This document shows, piece after piece, positions 18,890 to 27,720 of a stretch of 40,000 nucleotides of DNA (the stretch's first letter is position 1; every line of letters begins with the position of its first letter). Source of the stretch: Noviherbaspirillum sp. ST 5-3 (lineage in GTDB: Bacteria; Pseudomonadota; Gammaproteobacteria; Burkholderiales; Burkholderiaceae_D); contig NZ_CP176528.1 of assembly GCF_046267815.1 (NCBI RefSeq), positions 8,698 through 48,697 of the forward strand. The letters are read 5' to 3'. The notes under the pieces were generated by a model that saw nothing but the letters and a program-made list of their open reading frames with translations, did not search any database and had not been told where the DNA came from. The translations under genes were made by a program, and so were the position numbers.

Positions 18890-19890
18890 TCAGCACGAAC
18901 TTGGCAGATCGATGGGTGAGGAAACACCCCGGCCACCCTTGTTCAAAACATGCGCATACACGATGGTGGTCGACACATCCGCATGGCCAAGTAGCTCCTG
19001 AACTGTCCGGATGTCGTAGCCGGCCTCAATCAAATGAGTCGCAAAGCTATGCCGAAAGGTATGGCTGGATGCACGCTTGGTCAGCTTCGCCGCCAATACC
19101 GCACGTTTGACTGCCCGCTGGATGGTTTGCTCGTACAAATGGTGCCGACGAACGATACCGGTGCGGGGATCGGTCGATTCATGATCCGAAGGAAATGCCC
19201 AATACCAGCTCCATTGCGTGCCGGCAGACGGATATTTTCGCTCCAACGCATCCGGCAGCATGACACCGTTGCGGCGGTTCAGGCGATCCACCTCATACAG
19301 CGACTTTGCATATGCCAGCTGTTCCCGCAACGGCTGAACCAGGGACAACGGCAGCATGGTCAAGCGGTCCTTGCCGCCTTTGCCTCGCCGGATGGTGATC
19401 TCCCTTCGCTGGAAATCAATATCCTTGATCCGCAGCTGGGCACATTCCATCAATCGCATGCCGGTGCCGTACAGAAGTCTGGCAATCAACAGGTAAACAC
19501 CGTCCATCTGCGCAAAAATCCGATCGATCTCCTGGCGGGTCAGCACGGTGGGCTGGCGCGGCGGCTTCGACGGCTTGGGCAAGTCATCGATCCACGGCAA
19601 CTCCACTTTCAGCACGTGCTTGTAGAGGAACAGCAGGGCACACAGTGCCTGATGGTGAGTCGAGGTTGAGACGCTTCGTTCGTTGGACAAGTAGGACAGG
19701 AAGGCGTGGATTTCCGGTCCTCCCATATCGGCGGGATGGCGGAGCTGGTGAAAGCGGATTTACCATCTGGCCCAATACACGTAGACGCGTTCGGTCCGTA
19801 GGCTATAGTGCTTATCTCTAAGGCAACGTCGTAGCTGGTCGAGCAGTTTCGGTGGTTGCCCGACAGAAGCGGAATCAGGGGCGATTTTCA
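18890..19890 (-). pseudogene. intI: Integron integrase IntI with a single in-frame TAA (19759-19761)
   Basis: - Conceptual translation from GTG 19890: [74 protein letters not shown]...
- From memory, this is collinear with IntI1 along its whole length.
- It includes the IntI-specific insertion (ALERKYPSAGTQWSWYWAFPSDHESTDPRTGIVRRHH).
- It also has the catalytic R...K...HxxR...H...Y contexts (GTGMR, GKGGKDR, HTFRHSFATHL, LLGHADV, IVYAHV). Confidence 0.9.
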
Positions 19891-20032: not shown

Positions 20033-20311
20033 ATGAATAAGCAGCTCTACAACGCACCGCCGTCACCTGGGAGCCGCAGGATTCTCGGTCAGGGGTGTTT
20101 TGTCTTTGGCCTTTCAATGATCGCTTTCGGGATCTACCTATTTGTCGACGGATTTAATTGGCCACTTGGCGGTAGAGAGCGAACGATCGACATAATACTC
20201 ATGATGATTTTCGGACCGCAGTATGCGTCGCTGGCCATGGTTTGGTTTTTCATTGGGCTGGGTATCGTTGTGGGGTACAAAGGGCTAAAAATGTGGTGCA
20301 AAGATGCATAA
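20033..20311 (+). CDS. Cassette 1: small membrane protein (92 aa, 2-3 TM), unknown function
   Basis: ORF filling cassette 20024-20356. Hydrophobic stretches CFVFGLSMIAFGIYLFV and ASLAMVWFFIGLGIVVG. The stop lies inside the R'' box. Confidence 0.6.
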   Translation: MNKQLYNAPPSPGSRRILGQGCFVFGLSMIAFGIYLFVDGFNWPLGGRERTIDIILMMIFGPQYASLAMVWFFIGLGIVVGYKGLKMWCKDA

Positions 20312-20362
20312 CGAGTTATTCAACGCTGACGCGCAAGCGCGCCGTTTAACAAGGCGTTAGCC
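20306..20362 (+). other. attC of cassette 1
   Basis: R'' GCATAAC ... imperfect palindrome (..CAACGCTGACGCGC AAGC GCGCGCCGTTTAAC..) ... R' GTTAGCC. Confidence 0.75.
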
Positions 20363-20402
20363 GCCAAAACTATTCGCTGCCTATTTTCAGATTGGAACAA
20401 GA

Positions 20403-21272
20403 ATGGGTACTTGGGGATCTGGAATCTACGATGACGACTTCGCCGCGGACCTTAGAAATTCTGTAGCCATCGTATGTAAGGTTCCTTCCGGCGGCGATCG
20501 CCTCACGGAAATACTGTTGCAACTGCACGGAATCACATCGGAAAGCGAGGACGAAACTACATTTTGGCTCGTGCTTGCCGATCAGTTTGAGCGCAGAGGG
20601 ATCGAATGCCCTGGCGTATTTACCACTGCACTATCCATCATCGAAAGTGGGGCGGACCTGAGTCGCTTGAAGGACCAAGATGCGGATGAGCGCTTTCTGA
20701 AAAAGCGCGCCGTCGTACTCGAAGCACTCGCCACCCGGCTCCGGGCTCCGCGCCCATTCCGCCCCAGATCTATGCCCCGAAAGCCGCCCGATCTTGTGCT
20801 AGAAGTTGGATCGGTTTTCGCCTTTCCAACCATGAATGGTTTTGCATGTAGTCCGTGGCGCCTTCCCCGCGACGGCCCCTTTGCGACGAACGGATGGGGA
20901 GCTTTTGTCGTCCTCGATTGCGGCCGTGCCTTTGATTGGCTTCCATGGTGCGCGCTGGCCTCGCTGACCGTTGAACCTTCCAGAAAGCCGACGATAGACG
21001 ATGCAATTCACGCGAATCTAATCTTTCACCTTCAAACCGACGGCGCGGCAAGATGTGTCCCAAAACGGTCCGACGCAAAGACGATGCAGTTGGAGCTAAT
21101 TGGCCGCATCGCCCTAGACCCGAATTGCGTCAAGCCACATCTCTCGAAGTGGAGTATTAACGATGCTATTGAATGCGGGTGGTCAATCGCAAATGCCGGC
21201 TACTCCACTTCAGTACAAGGCCTTCCACGTGGTCCTCAACTACTTTCCCTTATGGCACGAAATGTCGGCTAA
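20403..21272 (+). CDS. Cassette 2: hypothetical protein (289 aa); N-terminus resembles DUF4259 (from memory)
   Basis: The ORF fills cassette 20357-21356. It starts MGTWGSGIYDDDFAADL. The family assignment is tentative. Confidence 0.6.
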   Translation: MGTWGSGIYDDDFAADLRNSVAIVCKVPSGGDRLTEILLQLHGITSESEDETTFWLVLADQFERRGIECPGVFTTALSIIESGADLSRLKDQDADERFLKKRAVVLEALATRLRAPRPFRPRSMPRKPPDLVLEVGSVFAFPTMNGFACSPWRLPRDGPFATNGWGAFVVLDCGRAFDWLPWCALASLTVEPSRKPTIDDAIHANLIFHLQTDGAARCVPKRSDAKTMQLELIGRIALDPNCVKPHLSKWSINDAIECGWSIANAGYSTSVQGLPRGPQLLSLMARNVG

Positions 21273-21362
21273 CCGGTCGTTGCAGCCGACCGCCCAAAAG
21301 CTGCGCTTTTGGGTCCCCTCGTCGCTACGCTCCTCGGCGGCGGCTGAACTTGGACGTTAAAA
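21267..21362 (+). other. attC of cassette 2 (long type, 96 bp)
   Basis: R'' GGCTAAC, spacer CGGTC, L'' GTTGCAGCC ... CCCAAAAGC TGC GCTTTTGGG ... L' GGCTGAAC, spacer TTGGAC, R' GTTAAAA. The R'' box complements the cassette start TTAGCC. Confidence 0.8.
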
Positions 21363-21365
21363 ATC

Positions 21366-21665
21366 ATGGACGCTGGTTATGTACTTGTTGCGGGTCTAAT
21401 TGCCGGATTGGTCGGCATGAACATAGCCGCGACACTTAAGGTGCATGCCAGCAGCTTTTACGAGAAAAAGCAGAAGTCGATACAGTACATCCTGATTTGG
21501 CTGGTGCCGGTACTGGGCGCAATTCTCTGCTATGGATTGGCGCGACAGAATGATGGCCCGCACAGCGGAAAATATTCCGAAGATACGTCTTTATATGATG
21601 ATGGAAACGTCGGTGTCGAAAATGCGAACATCGACTACTTCGGTGGAGGGCATCACAGTGATTAA
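21366..21665 (+). CDS. Cassette 3: small membrane protein (99 aa, 2 TM), unknown function
   Basis: The ORF fills cassette 21357-21719. TM stretches GYVLVAGLIAGLVGMNIA and YILIWLVPVLGAILCYGL. Confidence 0.6.
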   Translation: MDAGYVLVAGLIAGLVGMNIAATLKVHASSFYEKKQKSIQYILIWLVPVLGAILCYGLARQNDGPHSGKYSEDTSLYDDGNVGVENANIDYFGGGHHSD

Positions 21666-21671
21666 CCAGAT

Positions 21672-21725
21672 TTTTAACACGTCGCTCGACACCCACGCAA
21701 TGCGTGGGTCAGCTCAGCGTTATGC
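21672..21725 (+). other. attC of cassette 3
   Basis: R'' TTTTAAC, ACGTC, L'' GCTCGAC, ACCCACGC AATGC GTGGGT, L' CAGC, TCAGC, R' GTTATGC. There is an extrahelical base in L''. The R'' box complements the cassette start TTAAAA. Confidence 0.85.
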
Positions 21726-22111
21726 AGCTAACTAAAGTCGATCCCATGGCACTGAGGCAAAGAGTCGAGGCAGAGTTTCACGGCTACGCGCAGTGCTATG
21801 AGGCGCCACCAACCAGCACAACGGTTGGCACGCCATGGACAAAAGAAAAAGTGAAGATTGAAGTGGATCGTATGGCAGCGCTGCTTGTTGATCCGTACCC
21901 CGTACACTATGAGTCCGGGGATGAAATGGTGCCTTCTGAGCAGCGCCTTGTCGGCCGGCGCTCTGCCTTTGTTGTGGCCGAGGACGATCCTTATGTGCTT
22001 CTTTTCGACCATGATGCGGAGGATTTCGTTTTGGCGTACAGAAGTGATGATGGTCAATTGAGCGCATGGGGTCTGCGTGGTGATGCAGCTAGCACCTTCC
22101 TTGCACGCTGA
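21722..22111 (+). CDS. Cassette 4: hypothetical protein (129 aa)
   Basis: ATG placed inside the R' core (GTTATGC) because the cassette starts at 21720. The track start at 21704 would lie in the previous attC. No family recognised. Confidence 0.55.
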   Translation: MQLTKVDPMALRQRVEAEFHGYAQCYEAPPTSTTVGTPWTKEKVKIEVDRMAALLVDPYPVHYESGDEMVPSEQRLVGRRSAFVVAEDDPYVLLFDHDAEDFVLAYRSDDGQLSAWGLRGDAASTFLAR

Positions 22112-22117
22112 GACGCT

Positions 22118-22174
22118 GCATAACATGACAATCGACACTGACCGCTTTGCGGCCGGTCATTTAACACGTTAAAA
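22118..22174 (+). other. attC of cassette 4
   Basis: R'' GCATAAC ... TGACCG CTTTGC GGCCGGTCA ... R' GTTAAAA. The R'' box complements the cassette start TTATGC. Confidence 0.8.
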
Positions 22175-22185
22175 GTACAAGACCA

Positions 22186-22428
22186 ATGAAGATATTTGGC
22201 TACGAAGCCGGAGGTGGAGATGGAGCTGAGATTCGACCAGCTGCACTGGATGAAATCACGCTTCAGGCAAGTCCGGCCGAACTTAGAAAAATTGCTGCCT
22301 TCTTGAATGCTTGTGCAGACGGAATAGAAACCCGAGGCAAGGATTGGGAGCACGAGCACCTATCAGACAGAGTAAAGGAGTTTGAAGGTTCGCCTCATTT
22401 TGTTGTCTTCAATCCGGAGGCGGTATGA
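22186..22428 (+). CDS. Cassette 5: hypothetical protein (80 aa)
   Basis: The ORF fills the cassette that starts at 22169. No family assigned with confidence. Confidence 0.55.
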   Translation: MKIFGYEAGGGDGAEIRPAALDEITLQASPAELRKIAAFLNACADGIETRGKDWEHEHLSDRVKEFEGSPHFVVFNPEAV

Positions 22429-22432
22429 AGAC

Positions 22433-22485
22433 TTTTAACACGTCGTTGCACACCCATGCCTCCGGCCTGGGTGAACTCAAGCGTT
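22433..22485 (+). other. attC of cassette 5, 5' part; the R' core is split by the IS and continues at 24227-24233
   Basis: R'' TTTTAAC, ACGTC, L'' GTTGCAC ... L' GTGAAC, TCAAGC, GTT | IS | GTTAGCC. The left half is near-identical to attC 3. Confidence 0.8.
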
Positions 22486-22584
22486 GAAGCTGTAGAAAAA
22501 CCCTTTTTCGAAAGGGCGAGGGCGCACGAAGCAGTATGCCAATTTGCGCTTCGAGCCGATTGAGTCAATTCGGGAAGTGAACGA

Positions 22585-22615
22585 GACAAAGGCAAGCCAT
22601 GCGCTTGCCTTTGTC
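22585..22615 (-). terminator. Perfect 13-bp hairpin immediately after the transposase stop
   Basis: GACAAAGGCAAGC CATGC GCTTGCCTTTGTC. It ends 1 nt from the stop codon (22617-22619) and lies inside the IS. Confidence 0.4.
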
Positions 22616-22616
22616 G

Positions 22617-24137
22617 TTACTGCGCATAACCGTGATGCGCGAGCTTCTCGATGTTATGCACCAGGCAGAACAGCTTCCACTGCACGTCAACTTTGATACG
22701 ACCGCGCAGCGTGAAGCGGTTGAGCTTCTTGTTGTGACGCAGGTTGCCGAACACCGGTTCCATGATCCCCAAGCGCCTGCCATACAAGGATCTGCCCTGT
22801 GGCGAATCGATACGCCGCTTCATCCGGTCGGTATGGCTTTCTGCGACGGCCTTGCCGAGGAAGATCGCTACCTGCCTTGTCTTGGTCTTGTCCGGCGTGC
22901 GCAGGCACTTGTCACGATGTGTGCAAGGCAAGCAGTCGCGCTGCGCTCCCTGGAATTTGATGGCCGCATAACCATTGATGCGGCAGTTGCTGCCGGTCCG
23001 GTACAGTTTCTTGCCCGCCGGGCAGATGCAGGTCTTGTGTTTTGGGTCGTAGCTGAAATGCCGCGCCTGGTACAGGCGCTTGCCATCGTCCGGTGCGCTC
23101 TTGTTGTAGAGAGGATCGGGTTGCTGTTTGTGCCTGTCCTGGGTGGCAAAGCGCTCGTCGCGTGAGCGCATGTTGTTGTCCGCAATGAGCGCATTCACTC
23201 CCATCGCATCGAGTGCCTTCAGGTTGGCTTCGCTGTGATAGCCGGCATCTGCCGTGAGGATCGAATCATCGGTGATCAGGCCATGGATCGCCTCGACCAT
23301 CGGCATCAACAGCTCCTGTTCGCTGCCGGTGCCGTGCGCTTGCGCTTCCACGATCACCTGATGCTTGCCGTCGACGGCGGCCACACCGGCATAGCCTTGA
23401 ATGACGCCTTTGGAGGTCGCCATCTTGGCGCTGTCGCCGTCGGTGCGATTACTCTTGCGTACACTGCCCTTGCTGCCGCGCCGCTCCTCTGGATGGGCAC
23501 TCAGCCATTGTCGGATTTGCGCAGCTTCGCGTTCGAGCGATGCTACGCGCTGCGCCGCCTTTGCTTCCAGGCCTGCTTCAATGGAAGACTTGTCGGCGTG
23601 TTGATGGCGTGCCAGCATGGCTTGCGCCGCGGCTTCCAACTTCTCGACCTGGCGCTCGAAGTCGGCGCGCGTACCGCTCTTGCTCTTGGAGGCATTGCTT
23701 GGCAGTTTCACGCCATCAATGGCGAACATCTCGCGCCCGATCAAGCCTTGGCGATCACAGATAAACAGCACCTGGCTGAAGATACGGCTGATGTCCTCGC
23801 CCAACGTACTGACAAAATCGGCGATGGTGGTGAAATGCGGTGCATGGTCGCCGCACAGGGCGATGAATGTCACTTGTTCCCGGCAGGCGCGCTCGATGGC
23901 GCGGCTGCTGACAATGCCCCGCGAATAACCGAACAGGATGACCTTGAGCAGCAGGGCAGGCGGATAAGCAGGAGCGCCGGTGTCGTCGTTGCGAAAGCGT
24001 GCATCCAGATTGGAAAGGTCCATCTCATGGTCGAGCAGATGGTTCAACGCATGTTCGAAGGTGCCCGGCAAAAGCTGCCGCGAGAGGTCAATCGGCAGAA
24101 AGCGCGGATTGGTATCAATGTGCTTGTAACGGGCCAT
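22617..24137 (-). CDS. DDE transposase (DUF772-type N-terminus, IS1182/IS5-superfamily)
   Basis: 506 aa. N-terminus ...GAPAYPPALLLKVILFGYSRGIVSSRAIERACREQVTFIALCG. A central coiled-coil insert, then DAGYHSEANL. C-terminus ...FCLVHNIEKLA. Confidence 0.85.
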   Translation of the reverse strand: MARYKHIDTNPRFLPIDLSRQLLPGTFEHALNHLLDHEMDLSNLDARFRNDDTGAPAYPPALLLKVILFGYSRGIVSSRAIERACREQVTFIALCGDHAPHFTTIADFVSTLGEDISRIFSQVLFICDRQGLIGREMFAIDGVKLPSNASKSKSGTRADFERQVEKLEAAAQAMLARHQHADKSSIEAGLEAKAAQRVASLEREAAQIRQWLSAHPEERRGSKGSVRKSNRTDGDSAKMATSKGVIQGYAGVAAVDGKHQVIVEAQAHGTGSEQELLMPMVEAIHGLITDDSILTADAGYHSEANLKALDAMGVNALIADNNMRSRDERFATQDRHKQQPDPLYNKSAPDDGKRLYQARHFSYDPKHKTCICPAGKKLYRTGSNCRINGYAAIKFQGAQRDCLPCTHRDKCLRTPDKTKTRQVAIFLGKAVAESHTDRMKRRIDSPQGRSLYGRRLGIMEPVFGNLRHNKKLNRFTLRGRIKVDVQWKLFCLVHNIEKLAHHGYAQ

Positions 24138-24239
24138 GGGAGAACCTCCTTGTTTCTCCCATAGACTGGTTATTGTGATAACAGTTCGAGCGTGGCAAGA
24201 TGCAGAGATACTTTTTATACAGCTTCGTTAGCCGTCTTG

Positions 24240-24929
24240 ATGCCCATGCGTTCGCAATTTCATCGTCAGACTGAAATAGCTCGTATACGTGCCGAGCTGG
24301 AGCTGAAAGGCTTACCTCGCCTCAAAATGCTGCTCATCATCACGCTTACTGGCGGTGCAGGTTTTCTTGCTTCGTTTTCGATGCTCCGCTGTTGCGTAAC
24401 GTCAATGGCCATTCGCTATCCTGTGTCCATTGCCATCGCCTATGTCGTATTCTTATTTTTTCTCTGGCTTTGGCTCAGAACGTCTGCCGAGGATTACACC
24501 GATTTCCCAGATCTTTCTGGCATTCCAACTTGCCGGAATGTTCCGACCGATTGCTCAGAGCTTCACTCGGTGGCGTCGGCCGATGGCGGATCAATATCCG
24601 ACACAATTGGTGCAGCCGCCAGCGCGGATGAAGTCGCAATTCCTCTTCTCGTTTTGTTAGTAGTCGGCGCATTGCTGCTCTCATCGCTTTGGATCGTTTA
24701 TACGGCGCCTACGCTATTCGCCGAATTGCTGGTTGACGGAGCCCTTTCCGCTAGCCTTTACCGAAGGCTTCGGGGCCTCGACACCCAGCATTGGTTGGCC
24801 ACTGCTATCAGCCGTACTATCTGGCCGTTCGTCATAACGGCGGTCATCGCCGGTTTCGGCGGTAAGGCTCTACAGTTTTGTGTTCCCACAGCCTACTCAC
24901 TTGGCGAGGTAATACACTGGCATGAGTGA
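24240..24929 (+). CDS. Cassette 6: polytopic membrane protein (229 aa), unknown function
   Basis: Start moved to the ATG at 24240 (MPMRSQF...) because the track start at 24192 lies inside the IS. Several TM stretches (LLIITLTGGAGFLASF, VSIAIAYVVFLFFLWLWL, IPLLVLLVVGALLLSSLWIV, IWPFVITAVIAGFGG). Confidence 0.6.
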   Translation: MPMRSQFHRQTEIARIRAELELKGLPRLKMLLIITLTGGAGFLASFSMLRCCVTSMAIRYPVSIAIAYVVFLFFLWLWLRTSAEDYTDFPDLSGIPTCRNVPTDCSELHSVASADGGSISDTIGAAASADEVAIPLLVLLVVGALLLSSLWIVYTAPTLFAELLVDGALSASLYRRLRGLDTQHWLATAISRTIWPFVITAVIAGFGGKALQFCVPTAYSLGEVIHWHE

Positions 24930-24935
24930 GCAGAC

Positions 24936-25000
24936 GGCTAACCTCTCGGTCAACCGGACCTCGCGCATAAAGCCGCGCGAGGTCAGTTACCTCAAACGTT
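24936..25000 (+). other. attC of cassette 6, 5' part; the R' core is split by the MITE and continues at 25109-25115
   Basis: R'' GGCTAAC, CTCTC, L'' GGTCAAC, CGGACCTCGCGC ATAAAGC CGCGCGAGGTC.., L' GTTACC, TCAAAC, GTT | MITE | GTTAGGC. The R'' box complements the cassette start TTAGCC. Confidence 0.85.
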
Positions 25001-25108
25001 GAAGCTGTAGAGAAAACCCAAAAATGCCATTCTTGCTAATTCTCAAGCCAAGGGAATCAATGACTTACGCCGCTAAAAAAACCGCAAAACGACTTTTCCT
25101 ACAGTCTC
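25001..25108. mobile_element. 108-bp MITE sharing its termini with the IS at 22486-24226
   Basis: The left end GAAGCTGTAGAGAAAACCC matches the IS end GAAGCTGTAGAAAAACCC. The right end, reverse-complemented, is GAGACTGTAGGAAAAGT against the IS end GAAGCTGTATAAAAAGT. There is no ORF. It is flanked by GTT/GTT and has the same orientation as the IS. Confidence 0.75.
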
Positions 25109-25120
25109 GTTAGGCAGAAC

Positions 25121-25573
25121 ATGTCACGCGAAGGCGATCTCATCAGACGCGAGTTGAAGAAGCATGTGATTCCTCGGTTGGAGGAACTTGGCTTTTCAGG
25201 AAAAGGGCTGTACTTTCAACGAAAACGTGAGGTCTTAGATCTTTTGGATTTCCAGTATTGGAAGTACGGGGGAGAGTTCTTGCTTGAATTCGCGTCGTGT
25301 GAGCTAGGCGATCTTAAGACGTCTTGGGGCGAGATTGTGCCTGAGAATAAAATCACCGTGGCGCATATTTCCCCATTGAAGAGGGCGCGCCTACAGCAGC
25401 AGGGGCCAACACGGGGAAAGAATTTCGGGGGATTTGCATTCGAAGGCTTCGCGGATGACCAAGAACGATACGAGTCACTGGCGCGACAAGTAGCAATGCT
25501 CCTGCCTCAAGTCGATCTTTGGCTTCGTATTAGGGAGGTCGGTTCACATGTGCACGTACTTGGAGCTGCCTAA
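25121..25573 (+). CDS. Cassette 7: hypothetical protein (150 aa); resembles DUF4304 (from memory)
   Basis: The ORF fills the cassette starting at 25110. The N-terminus ...HVIPRLEELGFSGKGLYFQRKRE is of DUF4304 style. The stop lies inside the R'' box. Confidence 0.6.
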   Translation: MSREGDLIRRELKKHVIPRLEELGFSGKGLYFQRKREVLDLLDFQYWKYGGEFLLEFASCELGDLKTSWGEIVPENKITVAHISPLKRARLQQQGPTRGKNFGGFAFEGFADDQERYESLARQVAMLLPQVDLWLRIREVGSHVHVLGAA

Positions 25574-25619
25574 CATTTTGATCAACGCCGACGGCTGCGT
25601 CGCCGGTTATCGCGAACGT
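25568..25619 (+). other. attC of cassette 7 (terminal), 5' part; the R' core is split by the group II intron and continues at 27455-27459
   Basis: R'' GCCTAAC, ATTTT, L'' GATCAAC, GCCGACGG CTGC GTCGCCG, L' GTTATC, GCGAAC, GT | intron | TGACC. The architecture is the same as attC 6. The R'' box complements the cassette start TTAGGC. Confidence 0.8.
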
Positions 25620-27454
25620 GTGTGCCGGGCATGGCACGTAACTATGCAGGTGCAAGTCCTGCAGCCAGGTTTTCGTAGAGCCGAAGGCTAGGAGAACGGC
25701 AAGGGCGTCGCCGCGAGGCGGGGTCTGAAGGAAGCCGAATCCAAAACTGCGGGGCGACGAACAGAAACCGGATATGAGGCGTGATGCATTCGGGGCGAGC
25801 GGGCACGTGACTGCGAAGCCCTCCATCTACGATTGGGATGCATTTTGTAAATCCGGCGCTCGCGCAGTGAAAGTGACGTGTCTTACCCCGGGAGGCCTGT
25901 CCGGTGCCACAGGAGTGGCTGGGAACTGAGAGATTGGTTTTGACCGCCGGGCAGGAGTCAGCAGAAGGCATAGTAGGTGCAAGGCCCTGCACCGAAGGCC
26001 GGAACAATAAATGATGCCAAACCTTGTAATGAGAAACGGGACTGCCCCTGATCGACAGCTAACGCTGCCGCTGGCCGAAAGGCCAGAGGGTGAACTCGTG
26101 GCTGGAGAGCAAGGGCTTCGTGCATCAACGGAAGACCTTACCCTGATGGCGCAGATACTCGCACGCGAGAATCTGAAACGCGCCTTGAAGCAGGTTCGTC
26201 AGAATCAGGGCGCACCGGGCATCGACGGCATGACGGTCGATGAACTTCCGGCGTACCTGAAACAGCATTGGCCGGAAATACGCGCCCAACTGGAGGCGGG
26301 ACAATACCACCCGCAAGCGGTCAAGCGCGTGGAAATTCCCAAGCCCGACGGCAAGAAACGGCCATTGGGCATTCCGACCGTGTTGGACCGCTTCATTCAG
26401 CAAGCCATTGCGCAAGTAATACAAGCGCAATGGGAACCGGCATTCCACGCCGACAGTTACGGCTTTCGACCCAACCGGAATGCACATCTGGCTATCTGGC
26501 AGGCGCAACGCACTATCCGTGAAGGCCATGGCTGGGTGGTGGATATCGACCTTGAAGCGTTCTTCGACCGCGTCAATCATGACCGGCTGATGCAGCGGCT
26601 CAAGCAGCATGTTCCCGACCGGCAGGTACTGCGGCTCATCAACCGCTATCTGAAGGCGGGGGTGCGGATTGGCAGCCAAACACAGGCAACGACAGCAGGC
26701 GTGCCGCAAGGCGGCCCACTGTCTCCGGTGGTAGCCAATGTCGTGCTGGATGAACTGGACTGGGAACTGGACAAGCGCGGCCATCGCTTTGCCCGCTATG
26801 CGGATGATTGCAACATCTTCGTGCGCAGTCAGCGTGCCGGCGAAAGGGTGATGGCAAGCATAGAGCGTTTCGTGCGTGACCGGCTGAAGCTCACAGTCAA
26901 TTCACGCAAGAGCGCAGTCGACCGACCATGGAATCGAAAATTCCTGGGCTTTACCATCAGCGCCAAGACCAAAGTGAAAGTGGCCGAACAGGCCATCTTC
27001 AAGCTCAAGGCGAAGGTAAAGGAGTTGACCCGTCGTACCAGAGGCCACCGTTTGAGCGATATCATCGTGGAGCTGAGAGAAACCCTGCTTGGTTGGAAAG
27101 CGTATTTCGGCATTGCCGAGGTACTGAGCCCTCTGCGGGATATAGACAAATGGATACGACGGCGGTTACGCTGCTATCAATGGAAACAATGGGGGCGAGC
27201 GGGATACCGTGAGCTGAGAAAGCGCGGTGTGACTGTGCGAGAAGCATGGAACTGCAGCAAATCGGCGCATGGACCTTGGCGCATCAGTATGGCTCCAGCC
27301 TTGCTGCTTGCGATGCCGAACCGATTGTTTCGCCAAATGGGGCTGCCTTCACTGGCAGCATGAGATCAACCGTATTTATTGAACCGCCGTGTACGTGACC
27401 CGTATGCACGGTGGTGTGGGAGGGAGGGGCTGCGAGGCTTCTTCCTATCCCGAT
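25620..27454 (+). mobile_element. Group II intron (bacterial, En-less, class C-like), 1835 bp
   Basis: - 5' end GTGTGCC (GUGYG).
- Intron-encoded RT/maturase ORF in the position of domain IV.
- Domain V-like hairpin at 27383-27415 (ACCGCCGTGTACG TGACC CGTATGC[AC]GGTGGT) with a 2-nt bulge on the 3' strand.
- Domain VI-like stem with a bulged A (..CCTATCCC) ending ..CGAT at 27454. Confidence 0.85.
26011..27363 (+). CDS. Group II intron reverse transcriptase/maturase (no endonuclease domain)
   Basis: RT blocks ...GAPGIDGMTV..., RPLGIPTVLDRFIQQA, GVPQGGPLSPVVANVVL and FARYADDCNIFV (YADD), followed by the maturase X region. It ends without a D/En domain. Confidence 0.9.
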   Translation: MMPNLVMRNGTAPDRQLTLPLAERPEGELVAGEQGLRASTEDLTLMAQILARENLKRALKQVRQNQGAPGIDGMTVDELPAYLKQHWPEIRAQLEAGQYHPQAVKRVEIPKPDGKKRPLGIPTVLDRFIQQAIAQVIQAQWEPAFHADSYGFRPNRNAHLAIWQAQRTIREGHGWVVDIDLEAFFDRVNHDRLMQRLKQHVPDRQVLRLINRYLKAGVRIGSQTQATTAGVPQGGPLSPVVANVVLDELDWELDKRGHRFARYADDCNIFVRSQRAGERVMASIERFVRDRLKLTVNSRKSAVDRPWNRKFLGFTISAKTKVKVAEQAIFKLKAKVKELTRRTRGHRLSDIIVELRETLLGWKAYFGIAEVLSPLRDIDKWIRRRLRCYQWKQWGRAGYRELRKRGVTVREAWNCSKSAHGPWRISMAPALLLAMPNRLFRQMGLPSLAA

Positions 27455-27720
27455 TGACCGGCCGCTTTCCCGTATTTAGCCGACGGTGGCGAAGACCACC
27501 GGACTGAATGCATACTTCGCCGATCACGCTGAAAACGAACATCGGAGCATGCAAAGGACTTATTCCGTGCCTTCCATGTATTCCGCGGACATCCATCACG
27601 TCCTCGATTTCCCCTGATGTCAGACCGCCGCCGACGCGGTGAACAGCCCTCTCGAACCGGCTGGATAAAGCCTGTCGCATGGGCTAAGCTGACAGGATTT
27701 CCAACCCTGATCTGAACGCG

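Follow-up and report, generated by a model that had tools for sequence, protein, structure and literature searches.

Group II introns of class C that home to the attC recombination sites of integrons (IIC-attC introns) have been described as lying in the bottom strand of the site, antisense to the gene cassettes, at TTGT/T in its R'' core (PMC3001079, PMC7923331; a slash within a site marks the insertion point). A IIC intron in the top strand, sense to the cassettes, has been reported in E. cloacae (J Bacteriol 2012;194:150, Rodriguez-Martinez, Nordmann and Poirel, as cited in PMC7923331), and a sense-oriented intron was remarked in S. algae KC-Na-R1 (PMC9229058; 2022). Here we analyse 40,000 nucleotides of the genome of Noviherbaspirillum sp. 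ST 5-3 (NZ_CP176528.1, positions 8,698 to 48,697; hereafter the window, to whose first base plain coordinates refer), in which the last attC of a chromosomal integron carries a complete class C group II intron in the orientation of the cassettes. This ST 5-3 intron is, in all likelihood, an intact IIC intron of a lineage that homes to the top strand of integron attCs. The initial annotation of the window had described attC-specific IIC introns as antisense and in the bottom strand, in agreement with PMC3001079, PMC7923331 and a canonical copy described below (L125); the novelty that it attached to the sense orientation was overstated, as the S. algae case and, going by its citation, the E. cloacae case came before.

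A complete class C intron in an attC top strand

Three Rfam models match the intron on the + strand at gathering level, each over its full model length: RF02001 at 25707-25882 (134.6 bits, E 8e-28), RF01998 at 25917-26000, and RF00029, which covers domains V and VI, at 27382-27454 (41.3 bits, model positions 1-77). The end of the last model coincides with the predicted 3' boundary at 27454, and a bulged branch-point A stands at 27447, seven nucleotides 5' of the 3' splice site. A Pfam scan of the 450-aa intron-encoded protein (IEP) returned RVT_1 (6e-41) and GIIM (7e-17) only, with the YADD motif present and no HNH/endonuclease (En) domain. The intron ends have three independent supports, namely the end of the domain V/VI model, the joined flanks of a plasmid homologue (pR148, below) and an intact attC in a genome of the same genus. 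The initial annotation had read the same ends (GTGTGCC...CCCGAT, in the R' core), an endonuclease-less YADD reverse transcriptase (RT)/maturase and domain V- and VI-like elements, all of which are borne out. Its assignment to class C also stands: the same three models match with similar scores in the ST 5-3 intron, two IIC introns of terminator type (L005, L007) and the canonical IIC-attC intron L125; the four kinds of intron are one ribozyme class. The placement of the intron is that of class C as well, with the hairpin of the attC top strand upstream of the insertion and a short exon-binding site 1 (EBS1, ACGU) that could be mapped by covariation.

In the cassette 7 attC, the insertion divides the R' core on the top, that is the cassette-sense, strand (..GAACGT/intron/TGACC). 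This attC reads ..GGTTATCGCGAACGT up to 25619, where the intron begins, and the stop codon of the cassette 7 open reading frame (ORF; 25121-25573) lies within R'' GCCTAAC. When the flanks are joined (GCCTAACATTTTGATCAACGCCGACGGCTGCGTCGCCGGTTATCGCGAACGT+TGACC), a 57-nt attC with the R' core GTTGACC results, as the initial annotation had noted; attC 6, to which it had likened this site, measures 69 nt from R'' GGCTAAC and not 57. An intact attC of the same type occurs in a same-genus genome (G002, locus L094: ..GATCAACGCCGACGGCTGAGCCGCCGGTTATCGTGGACGTTAGAT). Another genome of the genus, G024, has a 3' flank alike at 93% identity from 27461 (GCCGCTTTCCCG), six bases past the junction, and the array end upstream of this common flank differs from that of the window; the attC of cassette 7 is therefore the end of the array. 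As for the intron-less alleles to which the initial annotation had pointed, no empty-site allele of the exact cassette was found among 60 relatives, where only the 3' flank (G024) and the sister attC (G002) appeared, and the joined flanks of the pR148 homologue are widely matched.

R'' and R' being inverted repeats, the two strands of an attC look alike in the consensus, and three tests were used to distinguish them. They draw on relatives from a scan of one genome per prokaryote species (the GTDB representatives), which gave 571 stretches encoding relatives of the intron; we analysed the best 79 loci of these (55-83% IEP identity to the ST 5-3 IEP) and mapped both ends in 46 full-length copies, including the window copy, a second copy in the ST 5-3 genome (copy 2) and two plasmid relatives. 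The integrase gene intI, located in part by tblastn search, is upstream and divergent in all seven integrons that have it in reach (the window, L127, L003, L004, L036, L049 and L061). At most of the 46 loci, a co-oriented ORF ends 50-100 nt 5' of the insertion. Single-stranded DNA folds of the rejoined sites show bulges of one base, typically C or A, nearly all on the 5' arm, and the top strand of the aadA1 attC has the same 5'-arm pattern. Such C and A bulges of the top strand are complementary to the G and T that are extrahelical on the 3' arm of the recombinogenic bottom strand. In the window, the R'' (RYYYAAC) .. R' (GTTRRRY) pairs and all seven cassette ORFs are on the + strand and intI is upstream on the - strand, so that the sense orientation given in the initial annotation is upheld.

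A canonical intron provides the mirror image. Canonical copies were found by scanning 400 genomes for the pattern TTGT+GTGYG, which yielded fragments whose domain I led to L125 and L126. On the E. cloacae plasmid OW968333.1, L125 lies antisense in the array qnrVC4-aac(6')-Ib-cmlA5-dfrA14-[intron]-attC-qacEdelta1; the bottom strand (..TGCATCTAACGCCTGAGC..CAGCGATTTGT/) makes up its 5' exon, and directly after the 3' exon, TAACC, comes the end of dfrA14, which is on the opposite strand. The two sites thus mirror each other, ..CAGCGATTTGT/intron/TAACC on the bottom strand in L125 and ..GCGAACGT/intron/TGACC on the top strand in ST 5-3, which vindicates the suggestion in the initial annotation that GT/T in R' is the pseudo-symmetric equivalent site. 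No canonical IIC-attC copy was found among the plasmid matches H23, H45, H52, H63, H66, H69, H77, H83, H102 and H115, KX711880 or the E. coli genomes. Fragments of canonical TTGT-type IIC-attC introns were seen in two gammaproteobacterial genomes, G380 (L120, L123, L124) and G339 (L121); other DNA breaks up L120 and L124, the contig runs out within L121, and the 5' part of the L123 intron is followed by a vapC-like PIN gene.

Target recognition, second copy and relatives

Nearly all copies of the lineage have an identical loop in the EBS1 hairpin (GCACGUGA), whereas the stem of the hairpin covaries (GCGG/CCGC, GUGG/CCAC, GUGG/CCAU, GGGG/CCUC). Loop positions 3-6 (ACGU) are complementary to the intron-binding site 1 (IBS1) sequence ACGU of the exon, and pair with GCGU through a G-U wobble. 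Across lineages, an ACGU loop in the ST 5-3 lineage goes with 5' exons ending ..ACGT (or ..GCGT), ACAA in the canonical L125/L126 with ..TTGT, AUG in the terminator-type L007 with ..CAT, and UAC in the terminator-type L005 with ..GTA. In these four lineages the loop thus changes together with the final 3-4 bases of the exon, by which the EBS1 assignment and the 5' splice sites are confirmed. The loop reads GC-ACGU-GA in the ST 5-3 intron and GC-ACAA-GA in the canonical bottom-strand intron; as this comparison shows, the two attC-homing lineages are only two EBS1 loop bases apart. Another candidate for EBS1, GTGACGTGTC at 25873-25882, was rejected, as it varies freely in relatives while IBS1 stays ACGT. 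The 5' exon was readable in about 60 copies, of which about 48 end in ACGT, 8 in GCGT and a few otherwise, with T following nearly always, and the 5' exons of the mapped copies resemble attCs. All seven attCs of the window array (20309-25619) are formal EBS1 targets, with (A/G)CGT/T, and the intron is in the last of them only. At the same GTT as the intron target, two of the seven bear an insertion sequence (IS) or a miniature inverted-repeat transposable element (MITE).

The ST 5-3 genome, a single contig of 5.79 Mb, holds a second, near-identical copy of the intron at C1:126156-127990 (3,296 vs 3,310 bits over 1,835 nt). Its site, ..GGCCTAAC..CATGTCGAACGT/intron/TAAATGC, is the attC of a rhodanese gene that forms the first cassette of a second integron (C1:124300-129700; L127 1370-6650); this integron has an intact-looking divergent intI upstream and rhodanese, folD-paralogue and DUF6817 cassettes. 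Both copies are sense to the cassettes, at GAACGT/T, and both IEP frames are open. Since two near-identical copies occupy unrelated attCs, we argue that the intron has been retromobile within this genome, and it is probably still mobile. The second copy also qualifies a further statement of the initial annotation, that the intron marks the end of the array: this is correct for the window copy, given the flank in G024, but it is not a property of the element, because copy 2 occupies the first attC of its integron. The intI of the second integron is open, unlike that of the window with its in-frame TAA. A MITE of about 108 bp (CTGTAGAAAAAG..CTACAGTCTCGTTAGAC) at L127 5990-6100 begins at the GTT of the folD attC R' core, the same attC position as that of a MITE at 25005-25111 in the window, and another IS1182-like copy lies at L127 15916-17436.

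The closest plasmid relatives are the introns of pR148 and pPp47, which lie in the same orientation in class 1 integrons; they are 67% identical to the ST 5-3 intron in nucleotide sequence from end to end, and 63-65% in the IEP. They split the aadA1 and aacA4 attCs (..CAAGCGT/../TAGATGC and ..CAAACGT/../TAGATGC, respectively), and their ends are homologous. The joined flanks of the pR148 intron are an ordinary aadA1-qacEdelta1 junction, matched at 99% or more by over 1,300 plasmids, with the best among the matches listed reaching 100% over all 300 nt; because these matches are intron-free, the homologous GT/T boundaries are proven. An S. algae plasmid is among the pR148-type matches. Shared ancestry, sense orientation and insertion at GT/T of R' mark the ST 5-3 intron, as far as sequence comparison goes, as a top-strand attC-homing relative of the pR148-type introns. 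A metagenome-assembled genome (MAG) of Candidatus Ideonella esbjergensis (L055 2575 and 7113) holds two copies of a related intron at a distance of 4.5 kb, in attCs that are near-identical and belong to one array.

In an IQ-TREE phylogeny of 73 IEPs with a distant outgroup (37% identity), the NCGT/T introns form a clade (support 97/93) with a core at 100/99. The ST 5-3 IEP adjoins L008, from a Paucimonas MAG; the plasmid copies are in the clade but outside its core, and the sampled terminator-type IIC introns fall outside the clade. The canonical TTGT-type IEPs, represented by L125 and L126, two sequences of 99% identity on a long branch, are outside the clade of the ST 5-3 lineage plus the terminator-type introns (87/80). 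The ST 5-3 IEP groups with the IIC-type IEPs gathered for this tree, as set against the 37%-identity outgroup. Taken together, the ST 5-3 intron shares with the S.ma.I2-like IIC-attC introns its location in an integron attC. It is, however, on the same strand as the cassettes, divergent from intI and with top-strand extrahelical bases, rather than antisense on the bottom strand; its site is ACGT/T in R' with an ACGU EBS1, rather than TTGT/T in R'' with ACAA; and its IEP is not monophyletic with the S.ma.I2 type in a tree that holds two near-identical canonical IEPs on a long branch. As three of the four defining features are thus absent, we do not consider it a canonical IIC-attC member.

The features of the window copy and its host array are collected in the table below. 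The intI of the window extends to about 19890 and has a single in-frame TAA (translation YWARW*IRFH), and an IS1182-like element sits between cassettes 5 and 6.

Table. Coordinates of the intron, its exons and the host integron in the window
Feature	Position	Strand	Basis or remark
intI	18890..19890	-	Pfam Phage_integrase + SAM_4; one TAA at 19759-19761; sets array orientation
Seven cassettes	20033..25573	+	sequence, ORF list; each attC ends (A/G)CGT/T
5' exon: cassette 7 attC as far as GT of R'	25568..25619	+	sequence, fold of rejoined site, intact homologous attC in G002
R'' GCCTAAC	25568-25574	+	includes cassette stop TAA
L'' GATCAAC and L' GTTATC in attC of cassette 7		+	sequence
IBS1 ACGT	25616-25619	+	sequence
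Group IIC intron, 1,835 bp, GTGTGCC to CTATCCCGAT	25620..27454	+	Rfam, second genomic copy, homologous ends in about 50 relatives
Domain I hairpin with EBS1	25797..25818	+	loop identity and stem covariation
EBS1 hairpin, loop GCACGTGA, EBS1 ACGU	stem 25799-25802 with 25811-25814; EBS1 25805-25808	+	
IEP, 450 aa, RT (YADD) and maturase X, without endonuclease domain	26011..27363	+	Pfam; frame open in both copies
Domains V and VI	27382..27454	+	RF00029
3' exon: T 27455 (IBS3), then remainder of R' (TGACC); cassette array ends here	27455..27459	+	sequence

Replication strand, proposed mechanism and rival explanations

Cumulative GC skew in the ST 5-3 genome has its minimum at the contig start and its maximum at 2.92 Mb, and dnaA is at bases 388-867, from which we place the origin at the contig start. 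Both copies of the intron (34 kb and 126 kb, + strand) are in the lagging-strand template. So are the relatives in two other complete chromosomes, G064, with dnaA at 391 and the intron at 42 kb, and G063, with dnaA at 246 kb and the intron at 605 kb, both introns being on the + strand. Introns without an En domain are primed from the replication fork (PMC4424553), and the attC bottom strands of chromosomal integrons are mostly on the leading-strand template (PMC8946536), which would leave the top strands single-stranded on the lagging side. We infer a link between fork priming and the attC strand bias for top-strand introns. In such a model, the attC top strand, when single-stranded (here as the lagging-strand template), would fold into a hairpin, and the intron ribonucleoprotein would read this hairpin together with the (A/G)CGT just 3' of it, pairing the latter with EBS1 (ACGU) and the following T with EBS3. 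The intron would then reverse-splice between GT and T of R', and the RT would copy it, presumably primed from a nascent Okazaki fragment. Being sense, the intron would be transcribed with the cassettes from the integron promoter (Pc) and could splice out of the transcript; at the DNA level, the split attC would no longer allow IntI to excise the cassette.

Alternative explanations have to be weighed against this picture. A generic terminator-homing IIC intron might have struck the attC hairpin by chance, as a terminator look-alike: IIC introns insert after hairpins as a class (PMC4424553), a few relatives do follow non-attC hairpins, and sense insertion behind a gene is what terminator-homing introns show. 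Yet attC-like sites, with R''/R' cores and top-strand bulges, hold both ST 5-3 copies and most of the 46 mapped ones, EBS1 fits the conserved (A/G)CGT before the GTT-RRRY of attCs and not a T-run, and the NCGT/T clade stands apart from the sampled terminator-type introns, so that we regard such a chance hit as very unlikely. The intron could also be a dead relic, brought in as part of a cassette moved by IntI rather than retrohomed in place, and the broken intI of the window and the IS that separates the intron from Pc might be taken to suggest this. An attC split by 1.8 kb, however, cannot be an IntI substrate; the two copies, near-identical to within 14 bits over their full length, are in unrelated attCs; and neither the ribozyme motifs nor the 450-aa frame is disrupted, which makes a relic more unlikely still. 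As for an ordinary S.ma.I2-like IIC-attC intron that landed in the opposite orientation, the attC location, the GT/T junction, the ribozyme class and the Rfam models would be as in L125, but the EBS1 is ACGU and not ACAA, the canonical IEPs lie outside the clade that unites the ST 5-3 lineage with terminator-type IIC introns, and the sense arrangement on the top strand is common to some 50 relatives. This is the most improbable of the three explanations.

Homing to the top strand of attCs by a dedicated lineage accounts best for these data, although some observations weigh against it. Covariation could not place EBS3, as nearly every 3' exon begins with T, so that of the two exon pairings raised in the initial annotation only that of EBS1 (ACGU with ACGT) was located. 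Six members of the same clade (L016, L024, L035, L063, L067 and L070) are at NCGT/T after hairpins without a recognisable attC R'' core; these insertions may be ectopic retrotransposition events, and because a few relatives follow hairpins that are not obvious attCs, the specificity is best described as a preference for a hairpin plus NCGT/T and not as a strict need for an attC. The lagging-strand position, found in four of four copies in complete chromosomes, comes from three genomes only. In the window array, intI is a pseudogene and an IS separates Pc from the intron, and transcription of this copy from Pc is therefore doubtful.

A wider scheme can be put forward tentatively, as quite possible if on balance a shade more doubtful than probable. 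Two separately evolved attC-homing IIC lineages, two EBS1 loop bases apart, would divide the attC palindrome between them: the S.ma.I2 lineage, with ACAA, would take the bottom strand at R'', and a much larger, mostly environmental lineage, with ACGU, the top strand at R'. The latter would be adapted to sedentary chromosomal integrons, whose top strand serves as lagging-strand template and in which an intron inserted in the sense orientation is transcribed from Pc.

Comparison with known systems

Top-strand attC introns are a kind already known, to judge from the citation of the E. cloacae report and from the S. algae case, and one little studied; the sense orientation is normal for a large lineage. 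In the literature searched, no description of the size of this clade or of the EBS1 rule was found, and the sense orientation is treated as a rare exception. The E. cloacae intron of 2012 is presumably of the pR148 type. What is added here is the second copy, about 50 relatives from environmental Proteobacteria with top-strand targets at (A/G)CGT/T, the EBS1 rule, the separate clade and the lagging-strand position. For annotation, introns in integrons cannot be presumed to be antisense, and a sense intron would be co-transcribed and could be spliced from the cassette transcript. For integron biology, an intron in R' freezes its cassette by splitting the attC. A change of two bases in the EBS1 loop appears to switch the strand of the same site that is invaded, which may offer a way of retargeting IIC introns. 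Class 1 integrons (blaIMP-4 and blaOXA-10/aadA1 arrays) already harbour introns of this lineage, and environmental chromosomal integrons are a plausible reservoir.

Terminator-homing IIC introns (those by traA on IncC plasmids, L005, and L006/L007) match the same ribozyme models, have the same IEP architecture and, like the ST 5-3 intron, lie a few nucleotides 3' of a hairpin and in the orientation of the gene upstream, with an IBS1-EBS1 pairing of 3-4 nt; they differ in their target, a GC hairpin plus T-run, in their EBS1 loops and in belonging to separate clades. The IIC-attC introns (S.ma.I2, E.c.I7, Kl.pn.I1; Quiroga, Centron, Leon, Roy) share with the ST 5-3 intron the class C ribozyme, the En-less IEP, the GT/T core target at an attC hairpin and an EBS1 hairpin that is the same except for two loop bases, but they occupy the bottom strand, antisense, at R'' with IBS1 TTGT, whereas the ST 5-3 intron occupies the top strand, sense, at R' with IBS1 ACGT, and their IEPs are not sister to the ST 5-3 lineage in the IEP tree. 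Canonical IIC-attC introns, moreover, block Pc transcripts and supply an outward promoter, whereas a sense intron would be co-transcribed. The pR148/pPp47-type introns have the same EBS1 loop and belong to the same clade; compared with them, the ST 5-3 copy is chromosomal and environmental, in a betaproteobacterium-like genome and among cassettes of unknown function, and it falls in a distinct core subclade (100/99).

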